A DNA stretch of 64,000 nt from Myxococcales bacterium (lineage in GTDB: Bacteria > Desulfobacterota > Binatia > HRBIN30). Position numbers and translations under genes: made by a program. Shown piece after piece: positions 1 through 8,654 of this stretch (within the stretch, counting starts at the first letter, position 1; every line of letters starts with the position of its first letter). The stretch lies in NCBI GenBank assembly GCA_037445065.1, contig JBBILD010000012.1, positions 1-64,000 on the forward strand. Reading direction: 5' to 3'. A model generated the notes under the pieces. The model searched no databases, had not been told where the DNA came from, and saw only the letters and a program-made list of their open reading frames with translations.

Positions 1-1574
1 CCCTCGGCCTTCACGTAGTCGCTGTCCGCCACCGTGCCGCAGAAGGGGCAGGTGGCGTTGCCGCCTTTGGAGAAGCTCGCCGGGTCGAAGCCGAGGCCTT
101 TTTCCGTGTGGCTCTCGACCAGCTCGAAGCACACCCGCTTCTTTGGTGGCACCGGCGAGCCGCCGGTGCTGCCCAGGCCAGCGGCCTGGGCCACCATCTT
201 CAGCGCCACGTAGCGGTCTTTCTTCTTACACAGCCAGGTCTGGCGCACTAGCGGCACGGTGGCGCCGCAGGATGGGTTCTTACACCGCACCGTGCGCGTC
301 CAGAGGTAGGCGACCGGCGTCAAATATCCAGGAGGTGTTTTCTCTGGTGGCACAGGCATCTTGCCTGTGCTTTCATACAGAGCATCCCAGTCCTCCGGGG
401 TTTCGCATAAACCCTTAGTCACAGGGTTATTCCGGATGTAATTCCACTTCTCTAAAAACTCGCTTTCATCGCGAGCAATGCGATCGAAGCTCTCATCCTG
501 CCAGACGGTTCCCTGGCGATTGAGCAGTTTGTTGATTTCCTTTGCTGTGAACGACTTGAGCGAGTGCAGGATGCTGGATAGCGACCACCACTTTCCCTCC
601 TCGATCTCGTGCGGTCTAAGCAACAGGTGCACGTGATCCGGCATGACCACGGCAACCCAGAGCGTGTAGCGATGGCCGTCGAAGTGTCGACAAGCGTCAA
701 GAACAATTCGTCTGGCTGCTTGCGGCAGTTCGATCTCGGCTGTTCTGAAGGTCACGAAGTACGTCGAACCGCCCATTTGCCAGTGGGGAAGATTTCTTCT
801 GGTAATGAACAGCTCGCTCTGCACAGGCTGGAAGCCTGTGCCACCCTTGCTTTTATACTCTGGGTCGGGAATGAGCGGGTAGAGATCGCCGATCTCGGCC
901 TTGACCTTCTCCAACACCCAGTTGCCCCAGTAGCGCACCTCTTCGGCCAGGCCGCCCCAGGTCGTTTGGTGGCTCAGGCTGCCAGCCTGAGGCTTTCCGG
1001 TCATCCCGCGCGCGTTCGGATCGGGCTTGCCGTACTTCTGGGGATAGACGAGCGTGCAGAGCTCGATGATGTGCGCGACGGGGTTGAGGTCGAGGGCGTA
1101 GGCCTCGCACCCAAGTCGCAGCGCCTCTAGCGGAATCGCCCCGCCGCCGGCGAACATGTCGAGCACCTTGGGTCTCGGCGCGCGGCCCGCGACGATGTCC
1201 TCGACCGTCACAGGCGGGCCGCCTGTGCCACGTTCCTGTGTGAGGCGCTTCGCGTGCGCCTCGAGAATGTGCTTCTGCGCCTCTTTGATCACCTCGGGAT
1301 TGCCAGGGTACTGGCAGAGCCGCTCGATGAACTTTGCCGCGTTGGCCCGCCCGAGGCTCTGCTTCTTGCTGTCCGGCCCGTTCTCCGGCACAAACCGCGA
1401 CGCCGACACGAGCGCCCCGTAAACGGCCGCCCGACAGGCCACCAGAGGCCGCCGCGCCCACCAGAGGTGCAGCGTCGAGATGTGGCCCTTGCGTACGGAC
1501 TTCTCCCGCGAGGCCTCCTTGCTGATGGCCTCGATGGGCAGGTAATCCTCGATGAGCCTGCGGTCGTCGGTCAT
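1..1574 (-). CDS. DUF1156-type adenine DNA methyltransferase, 5' part (runs off left edge), with in-frame RAYT domain insertion
   Basis: Hand translation from ATG 1574 is open to base 1. It reads MTDDRRLIEDYLPIEAISKEASREKSVRKGHISTLHLWWARRPL, then SAM motif VLDMFAGGGAIPLEALRLG, DLNPVA, and PVAYLWTRTVRCKNPSCGATVPL. ATGA overlap with the HEPN stop. Not in the ORF track (no stop inside the window). Confidence 0.92.
   Translation of the reverse strand, partial: MTDDRRLIEDYLPIEAISKEASREKSVRKGHISTLHLWWARRPLVACRAAVYGALVSASRFVPENGPDSKKQSLGRANAAKFIERLCQYPGNPEVIKEAQKHILEAHAKRLTQERGTGGPPVTVEDIVAGRAPRPKVLDMFAGGGAIPLEALRLGCEAYALDLNPVAHIIELCTLVYPQKYGKPDPNARGMTGKPQAGSLSHQTTWGGLAEEVRYWGNWVLEKVKAEIGDLYPLIPDPEYKSKGGTGFQPVQSELFITRRNLPHWQMGGSTYFVTFRTAEIELPQAARRIVLDACRHFDGHRYTLWVAVVMPDHVHLLLRPHEIEEGKWWSLSSILHSLKSFTAKEINKLLNRQGTVWQDESFDRIARDESEFLEKWNYIRNNPVTKGLCETPEDWDALYESTGKMPVPPEKTPPGYLTPVAYLWTRTVRCKNPSCGATVPLVRQTWLCKKKDRYVALKMVAQAAGLGSTGGSPVPPKKRVCFELVESHTEKGLGFDPASFSKGGNATCPFCGTVADSDYVKAE
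145..195. repeat. REP doublet (REPIN-like), translated within the methylase
   Basis: GGTG-GCACCGGC-GAGCC-GCCGGTGC (145-169), T, then inverted GCCCAGGC-CAGCG-GCCTGGGC-CACC (171-195). Length 51 nt. Confidence 0.85.
346..370 (+). repeat. REP hairpin, left end of RAYT module
   Basis: GGTG-GCACAGGC-ATCTT-GCCTGTGC: 8-bp stem, 5-nt loop, GTGG foot. Confidence 0.9.
821..845 (-). repeat. REP hairpin, right end of RAYT module
   Basis: GCACAGGC-TGGAA-GCCTGTGC-CACC, an inverted copy of 346-370 with the same stem. Confidence 0.9.
968..991 (+). repeat. REP hairpin within the methylase
   Basis: GGTGG-CTCAGGC-TGCCA-GCCTGAG. Confidence 0.75.
1209..1231 (-). repeat. REP hairpin within the methylase
   Basis: CACAGGC-GGGCC-GCCTGTG-CCAC; encodes (R)GTGGPPV. 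Confidence 0.75.
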
Positions 1575-1960
1575 CTGTTGCGGCCTCCCTCCAGGTAATG
1601 GCGGGCGCCTTCGAGAAACTCCCGGGCCTGCTCGATCGTCTCCTTGGCAGCCGCGTCGTCGAGGACCGGATCGAGATCGTAATCGCTCTTGATCCGCTTG
1701 TTGAAAGCCGCCAGCAACCACCGGTGGAACTTCGGATCCAGGATGCCCGTCTTCGCGAAATGTCGGCCAAAGGCTGCATGGACACTGCCATGTTTGCGGA
1801 ATTGCAGATCCCGCTCCCGGAGCAGGGCCTGAGCGGTGTGGAACATCGCATAGTAGGCGCGCCCGACTGCGGATTCTCCGTCCCCCGCCTTCAGCAGGGT
1901 CTCCGCAGCGCGCAGCGCACGTTGCGCCTTGCCGAGGAGTTTTCGTGTTTCTTCTTTCAC
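1571..1960 (-). CDS. HEPN domain protein (UPF0332-like, Rx4Y variant)
   Basis: RAYYAMFH, KHGSV and KRIKSDY motifs. GTG at 1960 overlaps the MNT stop. Confidence 0.85.
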   Translation of the reverse strand: MKEETRKLLGKAQRALRAAETLLKAGDGESAVGRAYYAMFHTAQALLRERDLQFRKHGSVHAAFGRHFAKTGILDPKFHRWLLAAFNKRIKSDYDLDPVLDDAAAKETIEQAREFLEGARHYLEGGRNR

Positions 1961-2277
1961 GCCGGCACCGCTTCCTCTCGCACGTTGATCAGGAACATCG
2001 TCTCTTCGTGCCTCCACCTATCTTCAGGGACATACACGCAACTGATGCTTCGATCACATTCCAGGGAGAGCCGCGCGATCAGCTCGCTCGTCCGGTCGAT
2101 CTCCCGCGAGTAGTTCTCGACGCGGTCCAGTACAATCAACACGTCGATGTCGGATTCCTCGTCGGCCTCGCCACGGGCATAGGAGCCGAAGAGATAGACC
2201 CCTTTCAGGCGCTCCCCGTAGAGGTGGCCCAGATGTTCCTTCAATTCCTGAAGAGCCCGTTGGACGTTCTCGTTCAT
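1957..2277 (-). CDS. Minimal nucleotidyltransferase (MNT) domain protein
   Basis: LFGSYARGEADEESDIDVLIV (GSx10DxD). ATG at 2277 overlaps the helicase stop. Confidence 0.9.
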   Translation of the reverse strand: MNENVQRALQELKEHLGHLYGERLKGVYLFGSYARGEADEESDIDVLIVLDRVENYSREIDRTSELIARLSLECDRSISCVYVPEDRWRHEETMFLINVREEAVPA

Positions 2278-5200
2278 GCGTTCGCCTCCTGTTGCCGGCT
2301 GACTGCCACAAGCGCCTCGGCCGGAATCTCGACGAACCGGGCCGCCACGATTTCGCGCTTCGCATAGTCGAGTCGCGCCGCCGGGTTTTGGATGCGGACC
2401 AGCTCCGGGTTCGGCCCGAGCGGATCCCAGACTACATAAAGCCAATAGGTCTCCGCAAGCTGTTGCGCTTTGTACCACTCGTTGGTCGTCAGGCGCACCG
2501 GCTGACCGCGCATGCGGCCCTTGACTTCGATACGCTTCACCGAAACCTGTCCGCTTACCGGGTCGAAGATCCGATGGGCACGGATGTCGAAACCAAGCTT
2601 CAAGTGTCCGACCCGCTCGATGCGCTCTTCGGGGAATCCCTCCTCGATCAAGGCGCGCACGACGAGGTCCTCGGCGGCCAACTCGCTTCTCCTCCTGAGT
2701 TTGGGGTCGAGTTCATCCGCCAGATCGGCGAGCTGGCCTTCGCTGTCCATGCCCGGCGCAAGAACGATCGCGGTCGCCACGTGCCGCACGGGGCCGGTGC
2801 GGGCGATCTCGAGCTTGCTCAACCCCGCAAGGCGGTCGGCGCGGGCGCGCTCGAGTTCTTCCACGTATTTGCGTGCTTCATCGGCAGCGAGTTTGAATTC
2901 CGGCTTGAGTGCGGCCTCGGCCATCAGCCGCATGGCGCGCTCTTGTGCGCGCTTGATGCGGGCATCGAAAGACCGTTCCAGATACTCGCGGCAGATGCGA
3001 GCGAAGCGCTGGCGATCCTTCTGGCAGCGGGCACGGCATTCGAGTTGGTAGGTGCCCTTCAGGTAATCCGACGCGGCTTGGATGGGCACTGGTTCGGTCA
3101 GCGACGGGGGATTGGGGTGGGAAGGAAGGTTGAGCAAGATGTCGCTGGGCACAATTTCGAAGACAGGCGAGCCGCCTGACCCACCTTGCTCGCGCACAGC
3201 AACGAGTTCGCCGTGCAAGGAAAGCTCGTTTCCTTTCGAGTCCTTGCCGCGGATCGAGATCTCGAAAAAATGGAGCCGGTACGGCTCGACCGCCATCGGG
3301 TCCACGTAAAATCCGATCCCGCATTGCAGGGACGCCAGCTTCTCGTTGAGCTTCTCGTCGAGGGCTGCGTAGAGCGGGTGGCCGGGCCCCATGAGCACGG
3401 CATCGAGGTGGGCGTCTTGCTCTAGGTGCCATTTGTGGAAGGTGATCTTCCGATACGAGGGCTCGGGCTTACCGAGTCGCTGAACGGAGCGCAGCCGTTC
3501 GGAGCGAAGCTCGGCGAGCACATGCTCGATTCGCCACAGCCCGTCGGCCCTTGCCTCCACGCGCAGACCAACCTCTCTGGCTGCGGCAAGAAACTGTGCC
3601 TCCACGTAACGGGGCATCAACCGCTTCTCCTCGATCTCCAGGTTGAGACGCTGGAAGCTCGAGAAGTCCACGTGACTCCGGGCCAGCGCAATGCCCGTGG
3701 CTTCTTCGTAAGCCTTGAGCTTGCCTGGATCCATGCGGTCAATCTGGTCCAAGTACTCGTCGAGGCGGCGCGGATCGAAAGCTGCCTCGCGTAACATATC
3801 AGGGAGATTCACATCGTTCAGGGAGAGAATCTCTCCAACCACGTCGAAGACCCGCCCCTCCAGAGCCTCGTTCATCGCCTCGAGTTTTTGCAGAAGCCGG
3901 TGCAGGATGCGGCCCTCCACGATCGGCTGCCCGTCTTCCGACTCGGTAGCCACGAAATTAAAGACGTACACATCCCGCTCCTGGCCAATGCGGTGAATGC
4001 GCCCCAGGCGCTGCTCGAGGCGGGTTGGGTTCCACGGCATATCGTAGTTGATCATCAGGTGGCAGAACTGCAGGTTGATCCCCTCGCCCGCAGCTTCGGT
4101 TGCCACACACACCTGCGCGCTCGTGCGGAAATACTCTTGGGCGCGTTTTCGCTCGTGCGGGTTCATACCGCCGTGAATCTCGCACGTCGTGAAGCCCCAC
4201 CGCTCGAGGTGCTCGCGCACGTACGTGAGTGTGTCGCGGTGCTCCGTAAAGATGAGCAATTTGCCGCGGCCGTCCTTGAGTTCGAGGAACTGTGCCCCTG
4301 CGAGACACTCCCTCAGCGCGGCCAATTTGGAATCCACCGGTTGGCCGTTTGGCCCACCGTGCTCGCGCACCGCGCGCGCCTGCTCTACGAGTTCCTTGAG
4401 CGCCAGGATCTCGGTACGAAGCTGGTCGAGTTCGAGTGCGGCCGTGAACTCATCCACAAGGCGATCGCGGAGTTCGTCGTCCAGGTCGTCTTCGTCTTGT
4501 TCGCCGTCCAGTAGACGCCCTTGGAGCACCGCCAGCCGTTTTGCCCGCTGGGCCGGCGGGAGGCCAGCAAGTTCTTCGAGCAGCTCCCGCTGCTTCTTGA
4601 GTCGCCTCTTGAGCGACTCGTGGATCGCGCAGGTCGAACTTACCAAGCGCCGCTGGAGAACGGTGCGGGTGAGGGTGGCGGAGGAACGGCGTTGGCCGCT
4701 CTGCTGCGGGATGAACTCATTGATGTAAGCTGTCACCGCTTTGTACAGTGCGTACTCCTCGCGATTGAGGCGAAAGGCTACCGTCCTCGCATGCCGGTCA
4801 GGGAACAGGCGTTTGCCGTTCAGGTCGCGCAAGTCTTCCTTGAGCCGGCGCAGGCACCAGGGCGAAGTCCTCCCGAGCCCCAAGATGTCCTTGCGGACAG
4901 AGGCCGCCTCCTGGCGCAGGCGGTGTGGCTCGGGGAACAAGTCTGGATCAATCAGACGCAGAAAGTGGGAGAAGCGGTCTTCGTCCCCGTGATGTGGCGT
5001 AGCTGTGAGCAGTAACATGTGATCAGCGGTTTCGGAAAGCCGCTTCACGAGCTGATACCGTTTAGTCTCCGCGACTTCGCTACTGCGCCCGGAGTAAGCT
5101 TTCGTGTACGCGGAGCACTTGTGCGCCTCGTCCACCACCACCAAGTCCCAACGCTGCTGCCACACACGCTCACGCACGTCTTCTTGCTTCGCATAATCAA

Positions 5201-5825
5201 CGGACGAGATAACCTGTGAGCAGCGCTGCCAAGGGTTGGTGAGCTGCTGCTGGTCTACAGCGGAGAAAATGATGTCGAACGACTCTCCAAACCAGCGCAG
5301 CATCTCGTCTTGCCACTGGATCGTCAGGGGAGCTGGACAAAGGATCAGGACCCGCTCGATTGCCTCGCGCAGCTTGAGTTCCTTGATGAGCAGGCCAGCC
5401 ATGATGGTTTTCCCTGCTCCTGGGTCGTCGGCAAGCAAGAAGCGCAAACGAGGCTGGGGCAACATGGCCTGGTAGACTGCCTCGATCTGGTGCGGGAGGG
5501 TGCGAATCCCGGAGAGGCTGACTGCGAACTGAGGGTCGTGGGCATAGGCAAGGCGAATCCGCGCAGACTCGATCAGGAGGCGAAGCCGTTCCGCATTCGC
5601 GGGCGGAGTCCCCACCTCGGTTTCGCGCGTCGCCTCGGCAAAAATCGTTGCCGCCTCCTCGGCAGAGATGACCGCCTCCTCCAGTGTGCCGTCTGGGAGG
5701 CGAACTCGGCACTCGTACCCTTGGGAACCATGGCTTCCGAGGGACCGCACCTCCTCGAGAATGACCGGCACCTCGAAATGCCCAGGCAAGTGGATTTGCT
5801 GCCCGACGTAAGCGGAAGGATCCAT
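2274..5825 (-). CDS. SNF2-family helicase with C-terminal DUF3883-like nuclease domain
   Basis: LLADDPGAGKT, DEAH, TATP, GEGINLQ, EQRLGRIHRIGQ; C-terminal GFDIRA...IEVKGR...LTTNEW...YWLYVV. Start placed at ATG 5825. Confidence 0.92.
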   Translation of the reverse strand: MDPSAYVGQQIHLPGHFEVPVILEEVRSLGSHGSQGYECRVRLPDGTLEEAVISAEEAATIFAEATRETEVGTPPANAERLRLLIESARIRLAYAHDPQFAVSLSGIRTLPHQIEAVYQAMLPQPRLRFLLADDPGAGKTIMAGLLIKELKLREAIERVLILCPAPLTIQWQDEMLRWFGESFDIIFSAVDQQQLTNPWQRCSQVISSVDYAKQEDVRERVWQQRWDLVVVDEAHKCSAYTKAYSGRSSEVAETKRYQLVKRLSETADHMLLLTATPHHGDEDRFSHFLRLIDPDLFPEPHRLRQEAASVRKDILGLGRTSPWCLRRLKEDLRDLNGKRLFPDRHARTVAFRLNREEYALYKAVTAYINEFIPQQSGQRRSSATLTRTVLQRRLVSSTCAIHESLKRRLKKQRELLEELAGLPPAQRAKRLAVLQGRLLDGEQDEDDLDDELRDRLVDEFTAALELDQLRTEILALKELVEQARAVREHGGPNGQPVDSKLAALRECLAGAQFLELKDGRGKLLIFTEHRDTLTYVREHLERWGFTTCEIHGGMNPHERKRAQEYFRTSAQVCVATEAAGEGINLQFCHLMINYDMPWNPTRLEQRLGRIHRIGQERDVYVFNFVATESEDGQPIVEGRILHRLLQKLEAMNEALEGRVFDVVGEILSLNDVNLPDMLREAAFDPRRLDEYLDQIDRMDPGKLKAYEEATGIALARSHVDFSSFQRLNLEIEEKRLMPRYVEAQFLAAAREVGLRVEARADGLWRIEHVLAELRSERLRSVQRLGKPEPSYRKITFHKWHLEQDAHLDAVLMGPGHPLYAALDEKLNEKLASLQCGIGFYVDPMAVEPYRLHFFEISIRGKDSKGNELSLHGELVAVREQGGSGGSPVFEIVPSDILLNLPSHPNPPSLTEPVPIQAASDYLKGTYQLECRARCQKDRQRFARICREYLERSFDARIKRAQERAMRLMAEAALKPEFKLAADEARKYVEELERARADRLAGLSKLEIARTGPVRHVATAIVLAPGMDSEGQLADLADELDPKLRRRSELAAEDLVVRALIEEGFPEERIERVGHLKLGFDIRAHRIFDPVSGQVSVKRIEVKGRMRGQPVRLTTNEWYKAQQLAETYWLYVVWDPLGPNPELVRIQNPAARLDYAKREIVAARFVEIPAEALVAVSRQQEANA
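3161..3185 (-). repeat. Degenerate REP hairpin within the helicase
   Basis: Minus strand GGTG-GGTCAGGC-GGCTC-GCCTGTCT; encodes GGSGGSPV. Confidence 0.6.
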
Positions 5826-6074
5826 CTCAGGCACGCGCTCAGTACTGCAACGGTTAAAGCATGGAGTCAACGCGAAGCATCGCAGAGACGTGTTCTTTTG
5901 CGCGCAAATGTGCAGGGCGCACAGAGAAGGGTGGCTTCAGAACTCGGCGTGCCAGCGCGCATCCAAGCGGGACGCCGAAGCGCTGCGCGGCATCGCGGTG
6001 TTCTTGCTGAGGTGTCTTTCCACTCGCCACAGATTTTGTGGCGACCGGTTGCACGCCCGTACCCTCCGGTGTAA

Positions 6075-6111: not shown

Positions 6112-6146
6112 TCCGGCGCGTCATGGCTAACGTTACTCACAGGAAG

Positions 6147-6219
6147 CTCCCCGGGCCGGACTCGAACCAGCGACCAATCGGTTAACAGCCGACCGCTCTA
6201 CCGACTGAGCTACCGGGGA
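6147..6219 (-). tRNA. tRNA-Asn(GTT), CCA not encoded
   Basis: TCCCCGGTAGCTCAGTCGGTAGAGCGGTCGGCT-GTT-AACCGATTGGTCGCTGGTTCGAGTCCGGCCCGGGGAG folds as a cloverleaf. Confidence 0.96.
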
Positions 6220-7201: not shown

Positions 7202-7585
7202 CTAGTTGCCGAACAGTGGCTCGACGGTGATTTCCAATTCGTCGCGCCCGCGCCGTCCGCTGGCGTCCGTCACCTCCACCGTGACCGTGTACGAGCCGGG
7301 CTTGCGGAACGTGTGTTCGACACGCTGCCCGCGCTTCTTCTTGCTCCCATCGCCAAAGTCCCACTCGAAGGTTGGTTTTACCGCTTCGTCCCCTTCGTAG
7401 ACTTCGGCCTCGAACTGTACCTTGAGCGGCGCGTTGCCACGATCGGGCTCGGCGGAAGCTGCAACCAGCAGCCGGCCTCCGGCCACGGCTTGGTTCGGCT
7501 CGCCCGCGCCGAACGTAGCGCACCCAACCAGCGAGATCGCGGCAATCGCCAGCAATCCGATCAGCCTCCACGAGTTCCGCTCCAT
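7202..7585 (-). CDS. PKD-domain lipoprotein
   Basis: Lipobox SLVGC; WDFGDG...HTFRKPGSYTVTVEVTD. Confidence 0.85.
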   Translation of the reverse strand: MERNSWRLIGLLAIAAISLVGCATFGAGEPNQAVAGGRLLVAASAEPDRGNAPLKVQFEAEVYEGDEAVKPTFEWDFGDGSKKKRGQRVEHTFRKPGSYTVTVEVTDASGRRGRDELEITVEPLFGN

Positions 7586-7754: not shown

Positions 7755-8654
7755 TTAGGGCTGGGTGTCTGCTTCCCTCTTCTCCACCCGGTGTTCGATC
7801 GGAGGGACCGTGCGCAGGTAGGCAGCGATGGCGCGCAGGATCGGTTCCGGGGCGTCCTTGTACCCGGGCCCGCCACCCCTGCCCTCGACCACCTCGGCCA
7901 TCGAACCTTGCACGTTGTCGAACTCGGGGGTGAACCCTGTCTTCAGGAGCTGAAAGATGTCCTCTTCGTCCCATTCCCCGATGCCAGTTTCCCGGTGCGG
8001 CGTAATGTTCGGAACCACCTCGTTTCCGGGGCCGCTAGCCGTGCCAGCAAGGTACCAGTCCAACCGCAGTCCGCCGAAGCGGCTGCGCGGGGTGTGGCAG
8101 TCCGCGCATAGCGAGACGTGGTCCACGAAGTAGCGGCCGCGTGCCACCGGCTCTTCGGGCTGCTTCTCGTAGCGGCGGAACTTGGGCGCCAAGGCAAGCC
8201 GCCAGACACGGTACGCCAAGCGTGCGAAGGGGAGTTCGTTTTCGTGTGGACGATTCTCCTTCTTTACCGCAGGAAGCGAACGCAGGTACGCGATCAGGTC
8301 GGCGACGTCGGCATCGGACATGCCTGCATACCAGTAATACGGCATCGCCGGTGTCTGCACACCCTTGCCGCGCGACATCCCATCCCGGATCGCGGCAGCA
8401 ATCTCCTCATCGCTCCAGGCGCCAATGCCGGTTTCCCGATCGGGTGTGATGTTCGTTCCGTAGAACGTACCGAAGGGTGTGGGGATTTCCCCTCCGCCAC
8501 TTCCCACGGGGCCATTGGCGGGTGTGTGGCAACTGCACCCTGCGGCGGCCGCAAACAAAACCCGCCCGCGCTCTGCGTCTCCTGGTGGCAGCGCGGCTGC
8601 CGCGCCGGCCCACAGGGCGCTTGCCACCGCTACGACTCCCCACCCTCGCATCAT
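7755..8654 (-). CDS. Di-heme cytochrome c (gluconate/alcohol dehydrogenase cytochrome subunit-like)
   Basis: CSCHT and CADCHT heme motifs; two NITP..TGIG.W repeats. Start at ATG 8654. Confidence 0.85.
   Translation of the reverse strand: MMRGWGVVAVASALWAGAAAALPPGDAERGRVLFAAAAGCSCHTPANGPVGSGGGEIPTPFGTFYGTNITPDRETGIGAWSDEEIAAAIRDGMSRGKGVQTPAMPYYWYAGMSDADVADLIAYLRSLPAVKKENRPHENELPFARLAYRVWRLALAPKFRRYEKQPEEPVARGRYFVDHVSLCADCHTPRSRFGGLRLDWYLAGTASGPGNEVVPNITPHRETGIGEWDEEDIFQLLKTGFTPEFDNVQGSMAEVVEGRGGGPGYKDAPEPILRAIAAYLRTVPPIEHRVEKREADTQP

Follow-up and report, generated by a model that had tools for sequence, protein, structure and literature searches.

REP-associated tyrosine transposases (RAYTs) are usually described as single-copy, stand-alone and perhaps domesticated transposases, and the repetitive extragenic palindromes (REPs) that accompany them as extragenic. 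Here we describe a RAYT within a 64,000-nucleotide (nt) stretch of contig JBBILD010000012.1 (the whole stretch is referred to as the window), where the transposase and two flanking REPs lie in phase inside hmaB, the DUF1156 methylase gene of an Hma defence locus. We consider it likely that this REP-RAYT-REP cassette is a selfish element, an end-to-end open ‘REPtron’ that sits in phase in a hypervariable loop of HmaB. It resembles the REPtron of E. coli (TnpA_REP, structure 4ER8) in that it has the HUH motif and the catalytic tyrosine, exceeds the cut-off of the NCBIfam model NF047646, and finds in 4ER8 its best match by both profile and fold. Its inverted REPs also carry a foot of the GT(A/G)G type, here GTGG, which has been reported for the Opitutus terrae GTAG-20 element (PMC3733652, cited, like PMC11855218, PMC11232893 and PMC6006769, for the available part of its text). 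The cassette differs from the REPtron in that the RAYT is not stand-alone, as it has neither a stop of its own nor an evident start and is read inside another protein, and in that no REP population is present in the surrounding 62 kb of the window.

REPs that lie in frame inside genes are already published, mostly from Opitutus terrae; many occur in uvrA/uvrB and tRNA synthetase genes, with GTGG feet and as dimers 1-2 bp apart, and Rickettsia palindromic elements are covered likewise (PMC3733652). The likeness extends to palindromes within open reading frames (ORFs), unbroken frames, many dimers at 1-2 bp spacing and shared hosts (uvrA, uvrB and tRNA synthetase genes). Four further REPs of hmaB (A, B, E and F, below) are elements of this same kind, being short GTAG/GTGG-tagged palindromes that keep the frame and are absent from homologues. 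The intragenic REPs and the Rickettsia elements code for no protein, whereas here a transposase is embedded as well, and the available part of PMC3733652 makes no mention of RAYT genes inside host ORFs.

Three other kinds of insert offer partial parallels. Inteins with homing endonucleases are mobile, enzyme-coding inserts that lie in phase in conserved hosts, occur sporadically at fixed sites and leave filled and empty alleles; the cassette shares these properties, but has no Hint or splicing domain and no splice residues, its enzyme is a Y1/HUH transposase with hairpin ends instead of a LAGLIDADG or HNH nuclease, and it is presumably not removed. IStrons are group I introns joined to a transposase of the IS200/IS605 type; a ribozyme splices them from the RNA, and they can sit in coding genes without killing them. 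The hmaB cassette is likewise an IS200/IS605-related element tolerated inside a coding gene, but bases 1-2500 of the window contain no ribozyme match, and its frame stays open. The published idea that comes nearest is the ShiLan domain, an unspliced insertion that conceals an HNH endonuclease within a DNA methylase of a phage (PMC11855218). Like the in-frame RAYT, it is a stop-free, in-frame insert in a DNA methylase that lacks intein or intron features and evolves like a homing element. The endonuclease of ShiLan, however, is encoded in a different frame, in which it has a GTG start and a TAA stop to itself, whereas the RAYT shares the frame of its host, is bordered by REP hairpins and is found in mostly cellular hosts that include housekeeping genes (comparison based on the available part of PMC11855218). 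In the full-text literature, a scope with most subscription journals and supplements outside it, we found no description of RAYTs inside host ORFs. The words fused, fusion and in-frame are absent from two RAYT papers (PMC5581495 and PMC2817692), and a large RAYT survey set aside ‘unexpectedly long’ RAYTs as fusions or errors (PMC6006769, available part). As far as we could find, therefore, in-frame REPs are known and in-frame RAYTs are apparently new, being visible in public databases and not described in print.

A REP-RAYT-REP cassette in phase with hmaB

The minus-strand frame 3..1721 in the ORF list is open at the start of the window, and from the ATG at 1574 it translates into 524 residues with no stop (protein P0001). 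Residues 11-80 match the Pfam family DUF1156 (E 4.8e-26), and the protein as a whole matches the PADLOC HmaB profile at 3e-51. It does not reach the NCBIfam equivalog NF042963 (80.3 bits for this partial protein, with a cut-off of 1000), and neither does the full-length relative P0002 (184 bits); because both scores are far under 1000, the window protein is a relative and not a member of that equivalog. HmaB homologues contain the consensus DPPYYDN, and the corresponding region of hmaB, as well as hmaC, which encodes the DUF499 ATPase, would lie beyond the start of the window. The elements found in the gene are as follows.

3..1574, minus strand: hmaB (DUF1156 methylase), first 524 codons (ORF list, translation, Pfam DUF1156, PADLOC HmaB)
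346..845, minus strand: REP-RAYT-REP cassette, in phase with hmaB and without its own stop (translation, repeat search, Pfam, NCBIfam)
821..845, minus strand: REP C, the 5' REP, with GGTGG foot, CACAGGC stem and TTCCA loop, read as GGTGFQPV (fold -10.7 kcal/mol)
371..820, minus strand: coding part of the RAYT (Y1/HUH tyrosine transposase), residues 252-401 of the ORF (NCBIfam, 4ER8 profile match, AlphaFold)
346..370, plus strand: REP D, the 3' REP, an inverted copy with ATCTT loop, read as STGKMPVPP (fold -10.8 kcal/mol, z -6.1)
1208..1232, minus strand: REP A (CGTGG foot), in frame, read as RGTGGPPVT (pattern search, folding)
968..992, plus strand: REP B (stem CTCAGGC), in frame, read as KPQAGSLSHQ (pattern search, folding)
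171-195, minus strand (E), and 145-169, plus strand (F): REP doublet E/F, 1 nt apart with feet outward, read as VAQAAGLGSTGGSPVPP (pattern search, folding)

The two arms of the cassette, REPs C and D, are 25 nt each, lie 450 nt apart and are 88% complementary, the differences being confined to their loops. Each consists of a GGTGG foot and a stem of 8-9 bp that is predicted by folding to form a hairpin in single-stranded DNA. The peptides that they encode are rich in Gly, Thr and Pro and would act as flexible linkers. A search of the window with the REP pattern (5-nt loop, up to 3 mismatches) returned 7 matches that represent 6 distinct elements, as compared to 0.02 expected from shuffled sequence. 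All six lie inside hmaB and each is translated in frame; the other 62 kb of the window contain no REP of this family, and 13 other perfect 8-bp hairpins in the window are unrelated to them. The stems of the hmaB REPs (CACAGGC, CTCAGGC, CCCAGGC and CACCGGC) differ by changes that are paired, the matching complement being present in each case.

Between the arms, the transposase is recognized by two family models. NF047646 (REP_Tyr_transpos) aligns with residues 264-396 almost from end to end (model positions 4-143 of 146) at 85.6 bits against a cut-off of 80, while the Pfam family Y1_Tnp matches residues 303-365 at 23.2 bits, barely over its cut-off of 23. The HUH motif MPDHVH (residues 311-316) aligns with the HUH column of 169 relatives and with that of 4ER8, and the catalytic tyrosine, Y379 in NYIRNNP, aligns with the YIYINP motif of 4ER8. 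A single-sequence search of the PDB with the RAYT gave no match. With a family profile, the best relative in the PDB is E. coli TnpA_REP (4ER8, 9.1e-14), and the AlphaFold model of residues 239-420 (mean predicted local distance difference test score, pLDDT, of 87.3) has 4ER8_A as its top fold match (E 1.1e-7, template-modelling scores 0.58/0.64), followed by IS200/IS605 transposases. The pLDDT falls to ~50 in the first and last 10-15 residues of the model, which are the REP-coded linkers. The RAYT is not a stand-alone gene: its frame is continuous with hmaB at both sides, and translation reveals no stop of its own, although a GTG within the 5' REP could serve as an internal start.

The transposase appears intact in this and related proteins. 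Both the HUH motif and the catalytic tyrosine are retained in 36 of 37 copies nested in HmaB (one has Cys in place of Tyr), in 37 of 38 copies nested in other proteins and in 77 of 78 short forms. Likewise, an alignment of 27 family sequences has ten invariant positions, and these are kept in at least 36 of the 37 and at least 37 of the 38 nested copies, even though nested copies diverge by up to 50-65% from the RAYT of the window. As judged from these alignments, the catalytic residues of the nested RAYT are evidently under constraint.

A preliminary description of the window, made from its sequence alone, had proposed the single stop-free minus-strand frame from ATG 1574, a RAYT domain with HUH and Tyr motifs inside a DUF1156 methylase of a defence locus with an SNF2 helicase, flanking inverted 25-nt REPs read as the linkers GGTGFQPV and STGKMPVPP, and the lack of intein splice features. 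These points are borne out by the results above and by those on the neighbouring hmaA gene below, and Y1_Tnp, which an HMM scan was expected to find nested in the DUF1156 protein, was found there. The flanking pair was also correctly described, but the count of two REPs was too low, as the gene holds six.

The sporadic occurrence of the insert at a fixed site in conserved proteins, which recalls inteins and homing introns, raises the possibility that it is removed after transcription or translation, as a cryptic intron, an intein-like element or a proteolytically excised segment. We regard such removal as very unlikely. The 524-residue protein has no match to Hint or intein families at E <= 0.01 in Pfam, and no Rfam family, including the ribozyme core, matches bases 1-2500 at E <= 1. 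The insert begins with GGTG and ends with PVPP, and a Gly start and a Pro end differ from the usual splice residues of inteins. Splicing of the RNA would moreover leave the frame of the insert unprotected, yet all fused proteins observed have an open frame, an observation that is biased because only open frames appear as fusions.

Filled and empty alleles, phylogeny and base composition

A search for longer relatives of the window protein returned 7900 proteins at E <= 1e-10. The best 120 of these HmaB homologues were compared, and they supply both the filled and the empty side of the comparison; the query contained the RAYT. A RAYT is present in 36 of the 120, and in 34 of these 36 it occupies the same loop as in the window, between the anchors GDLYP and PVAYLW. 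The remaining two have it in the loop of REP B (P0038) and in the loop of REPs E/F (P0034). Most of the RAYT-bearing homologues are 1116-1301 residues long (two are shorter, at 972 and 1033 residues), whereas the other 84 have ~975-1050 residues, apart from one of 1114 residues with a GIY-YIG insert. At the site of the cassette the RAYT-free loops are variable, ranging from 31 to 78 residues (72 loops compared; 10 of the 120 homologues without the anchors were excluded), and none of the 72 contains an excision footprint in the form of a REP pair without a RAYT. The preliminary description had suggested that homologues be compared for empty alleles and for other cargo, and both were found. The filled protein P0003 (1179 residues) and the empty protein P0040 (1027 residues) are 92% identical over 1017 aligned pairs, with 162 extra residues in the former, and P0002 and P0114 form a comparable pair at 87%. 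In-frame GIY-YIG domains occupy the REP B loop of P0039 (residues 197-263) and P0013 (residues 228-294), the latter of which also carries a RAYT; thus, HmaB loops accept more than one kind of small nuclease gene. The architecture recurs in 36 further HmaB proteins of various origin as well as in several hundred long RAYT-matching proteins, which leaves hardly any room for an assembly chimera or sequencing error at the junctions of the window.

The distribution of the RAYT is patchy. On a tree of the 120 host proteins from which the insert had been removed, its presence and absence require 16 changes, at least 14 of which are forced by well-supported branches, and a single RAYT clade is scattered across at least 10 places of the host tree. 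Conversely, at least 4 clades are represented among the HmaB-nested RAYTs, which require 9 changes (at least 4 forced) on a tree of 169 RAYT domains and are interleaved with short forms. In many of the short forms a Met lies just ahead of the RAYT domain and a stop just behind it, which identifies them as true stand-alone genes. The linker peptides co-vary with the RAYT clade (GGTGFQPV...TGKMPVPP, TGGPPVQ...TGGPPVPP and GQAASL...GLAARPT), which would follow if RAYTs moved together with their own REPs.

The composition of the insert is also foreign to its host. The GC content is 0.54 in the cassette (346..845) and 0.53 in the core between the REPs, as compared to 0.65-0.66 in the rest of hmaB, and the GC content at third codon positions (GC3) is 0.65 in the insert and 0.84-0.86 in the host part. 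Sliding profiles delimit the tract with low GC3:

321..869, minus strand: low-GC3 tract, codons ~236-418, slightly wider than the cassette (sliding GC3 and GC profiles)

The tract extends a few host-like codons (EYKSK and EKTPPGYL) past each REP, which hints at arrival by recombination with a foreign hmaB allele. On the basis of these ~13 codons, we weakly favour the entry of the window copy by such recombination.

Taken with the 92% identical pair, the 16 changes on the host tree, the at least 4 clades and the GC3 contrast indicate that the insert behaves as mobile DNA and not as a module of the defence system. The preliminary description had left two options, a non-splicing mobile element that shelters in an addictive methylase or a domesticated, single-strand-nicking domain of the defence system. 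In the second, the RAYT would serve Hma (helicase-methylase-ATPase; PMC11232893) as a nicking module, and the loop would be a ‘nuclease slot’ of HmaB. Such a role is compatible with the conserved catalytic residues of the nested copies, with the many HmaB homologues that carry a RAYT, with the second nuclease-type domain, GIY-YIG, in another loop of P0039 and P0013, and with a role of HmaB that is not established in the available part of PMC11232893. We nevertheless consider it unlikely. At least 14 gains or losses among 120 homologues, filled and empty sister alleles, several RAYT clades and a foreign composition fit a domesticated component poorly, and members of this RAYT clade also reside in tRNA ligases, PurH, RdgB and other proteins that need no nuclease (see below). 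In the Hma system that was studied, HmaA already carries a nuclease domain (PMC11232893). The mobile-element reading is therefore better than the defence-module reading, and patchiness, clades, composition, allele pairs and housekeeping hosts uphold the first option as far as a non-splicing mobile element is concerned. The part about shelter in an addictive methylase is not supported, as the hosts include tRNA ligases and PurH, as T4 from an HmaB-overexpressing host showed unchanged infection, and as hmaB is absent from ~15% of the surveyed putative Hma-like systems (PMC11232893, available part). In the same study, HmaA alone conferred protection against T4, and no effect of HmaB like that of a restriction-modification system was seen.

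Nested RAYTs in other proteins and a proposed mode of spread

The case in the window exemplifies a widespread arrangement of this RAYT clade, whose hosts include housekeeping proteins. A HMMER search with the RAYT part alone, against 1.84 billion representative proteins, gave 9726 matches at E <= 0.001 and 137 at E <= 1e-30. Among the best 150 of the 9726, 44 have at least 60 residues on either side of the RAYT. Pfam assigned a host family to 47 of the 53 long RAYT-bearing proteins taken from these best 150: class I tRNA ligases (8), Ham1/RdgB (8), PurH (6), AlaRS (4), DUF1156 (3), PriA, RecG, MmeI-like proteins and Methyltransf_11 (2 each), and HSP70, BirA, shikimate kinase, SNF2, a DinG-type helicase, Type ISP, an N6_N4 methylase, hydantoinase, ferredoxin and a LOG-like protein (1 each). 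The host domain is often split at a recurrent position of its profile (208/209 in tRNA-synt_1, ~131/133 in PurH and 122-127 in Ham1). Five hosts were checked against the NCBIfam equivalog cut-offs of their own families, and all exceed them (ValS 796 vs 704, PurH 595 vs 402, AlaS 826 vs 457, PriA 849 vs 813 and CarB 1663 vs 599).

A second search with the RAYT part, limited to proteins of at least 918 residues, matched 531 of them at E <= 1e-15. The best 120 of these were listed, and the 101 newly fetched among them comprise 70 ValRS-like ligases, 12 HmaB, 6 AlaRS, 2 Type ISP and 1 PurH, as well as 10 that BLAST left unplaced and that are Ile/Leu ligases and MetH according to their stored Pfam labels; in 97 of the 101, the RAYT is both preceded and followed by 90 residues or more. 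Named records of long RAYT-bearing proteins are mostly from Phycisphaerae, and one class I tRNA ligase with a RAYT lies on a 4.6-Mb contig of Phycisphaeraceae bacterium D3-23. In public annotation some of these proteins are called ‘REP-associated tyrosine transposase, partial’, and others bear double names such as ‘alanyl-tRNA synthetase/REP element-mobilizing transposase RayT’, so that the partial and double transposase names of nested proteins give the arrangement some weight for annotation. A further case comes from a Verrucomicrobia metagenome-assembled genome (MAG):

L009:6057-10163, plus strand: CarB, 1369 residues, with nested RAYT

Here the RAYT, with 42-nt inverted repeats on its two sides (7510-7551 and 8248-8289), splits the oligomerisation domain, and the second ATP-grasp half contains another REP pair in frame. 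The REP-to-REP span is 780 nt, as compared to 500 nt in the window, and the insert has a GC3 of 0.53 against 0.66 in the host, a difference in the same direction as in hmaB.

These hosts also bear on the idea that the insertion simply inactivated hmaB, and that the frame is still open because the event is recent or the gene dispensable. The end of hmaB lies beyond the window, the foreign composition suggests a recent arrival, and loss of the gene may be tolerated, since hmaB is found in 85.3% of surveyed putative Hma-like systems and is missing from ~15% (PMC11232893, available part). Against these points stand a cassette that is in phase at both junctions and runs for 167 codons without a stop, 36 homologues in separate records with the same arrangement and with lengths that mostly fit a whole HmaB plus the insert, nested RAYTs in proteins that exceed the equivalog cut-offs of essential enzymes, and a host part of hmaB that retains high GC3 and the motif I residues. 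Inactivation thus appears improbable.

The insert instead looks like mobile DNA that survives through translation as part of its host protein. In the mechanism that we propose, ribosomes on hmaB would read the first REP as a linker, then the whole transposase and the second REP, and pass back into HmaB, so that the HmaB produced would contain an extra domain of 167 residues, attached through two flexible linkers that the REPs encode. With such read-through, promoter, start and stop would all come from the host gene, and the cassette would gain expression in this way; since its imprecise loss would disrupt that gene, it would also be protected against deletion. TnpA_REP and the IS200/IS605 enzymes act on hairpins in single-stranded DNA, and by analogy the embedded RAYT would be expected to bind and cleave the REP hairpins in the same way. 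Its activity would bring REPs into further permissive loops, perhaps together with the cassette itself, while spread among HmaB alleles could proceed by transposition, homologous recombination or both. Production of a functional fusion protein, activity of the RAYT in its embedded state and the route of its spread are points that we infer from sequence. More broadly, we put at about even the chance that REP-RAYT-REP cassettes form a class of autonomous elements that live as translated, unspliced inserts in essential and defence proteins of several phyla, Planctomycetota foremost. Members of such a class would draw promoter, ribosome-binding site and stop codon from the host gene and take shelter in it, and an active embedded transposase would seed in-frame REPs in and around that gene, making them intein-like parasites that dispense with splicing. 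If this is true, mobile DNA would have a third means of occupying essential genes, in addition to inteins and self-splicing introns, and it would become testable whether a Y1 transposase works while tethered, whether REPs spread in cis and which loops tolerate inserts of 170 residues.

Several observations weigh against the mobile-cassette reading. The REP-to-REP span of 500 nt is not divisible by three, and the inserted DNA therefore cannot equal exactly the stretch from REP to REP. The window holds the 5' portion of hmaB (its first 524 codons), with the 3' portion beyond the window start. Because the query of the homologue search included the RAYT, the sample is biased towards filled alleles, and 36 of 120 should not be read as a frequency. 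Both trees were built with FastTree and have local support only. In a survey of 69 loci from other genomes, REP sites of this family are rarer in ORFs of at least 400 residues than random positions are (26 of 70 sites versus 57% of 1380 positions). At REPs A and B the window protein is only 3-4 codons longer than most homologues, which is less than one 25-nt REP; these two REPs may have arisen by partial replacement or conversion and not by simple insertion. In favour of REP activity near the RAYT, REP-coded peptides outside the cassette are more numerous in filled than in empty alleles (mean 1.75 vs 0.25), and at least one such peptide is present in 23 of the 36 filled and 13 of the 84 empty proteins, but the associated p of 1.6e-8 ignores kinship among the alleles, and the REP-peptide motifs overlap. 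This excess, the different set of REPs in the closest relative, P0002 (described below), and the location of all six REPs of the window in the RAYT’s own gene hint that the RAYT acts near itself; alternatively, the extra REPs of filled alleles could reflect their origin in REP-rich genomes.

Further REPs and the Hma neighbourhood

At REP A, where the window reads GTGGPPVTV, most homologues read GK-PVTV. In some homologues the REP B loop accommodates a RAYT or a GIY-YIG domain, as described above. At REPs E/F most homologues read APRG-EK, and P0034 carries its RAYT in this loop. The E/F doublet folds at -27.7 kcal/mol (z -6.2). In the homologues, the native sequence at REPs A and B is itself similar to half a REP. 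None of REPs A, B and E/F is present in P0002, the closest relative, which instead contains three 3' REPs in tandem and, in the C-terminal half, a pair of REPs. Approximately eight more loops of the HmaB family bear short inserts with a REP-like peptide signature in several homologues (consensus columns ~197, 302-306, 351, 387, 468, 721 and 807; P0002-P0121). In P0023 long SGTGG tandem repeats adjoin the nested RAYT, P0016 has extra REPs in both orientations, and in P0028 the 3' REP is read in another frame (TGKHRQDACAT), after which the host frame is regained.

The REP core pattern occurs in at least 124 genome stretches, mainly from Planctomycetota, Verrucomicrobiota, Desulfobaccales and Cyanobacteria, with few loop types and no HmaB locus among the stretches listed. 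A 25-mer identical to REP C is found in a Planctomycetota MAG (L114 and L021), where the loop variants TTCCA and ATCTT occur together as doublets (L114:300-365 and L021:10000-10095) with their feet inward, which is the order expected at a junction between the 3' end and the 5' end of the cassette. Pfam families were found in 12 of 16 REP-bearing long ORFs that were checked, and REPs lie in frame and well inside UvrA, UvrB, CobN, AspRS, a class I ligase and HrpB (L054:8664-14682, with UvrB and UvrA on the same contig, L051:1-2613, L020:9230-11125, L036:8671-12222 and L061:8504-11437). These in-frame REPs of other genomes are mostly read as xTGxxPVx peptides.

Upstream of hmaB, on the same strand, the window contains the following genes.

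1571..2017, minus strand: HEPN-domain gene, the end of whose ORF overlaps the hmaB ATG (Pfam HEPN 9e-16)
1957..2280, minus strand: nucleotidyltransferase (MNT-like) gene, paired with the HEPN gene (Pfam NTP_transf_2 2.5e-13; PADLOC PDC-S09 1.7e-34)
2274..5870, minus strand: hmaA, SNF2 helicase with C-terminal NOV_C (PADLOC HmaA 2.5e-191; Pfam SNF2-rel_dom, Helicase_C, NOV_C)
6146-6219, minus strand: tRNA-Asn gene, just upstream of hmaA

A promoter scan of bases 1-2600 found no promoter-like site. The nucleotidyltransferase/HEPN pair (1571-2280) sits between hmaA and hmaB, which fits the published insertion of other genes among the hma genes, seen in approximately two-thirds of hma systems (PMC11232893, available part). 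The tRNA-Asn gene may mark the border of the defence island.

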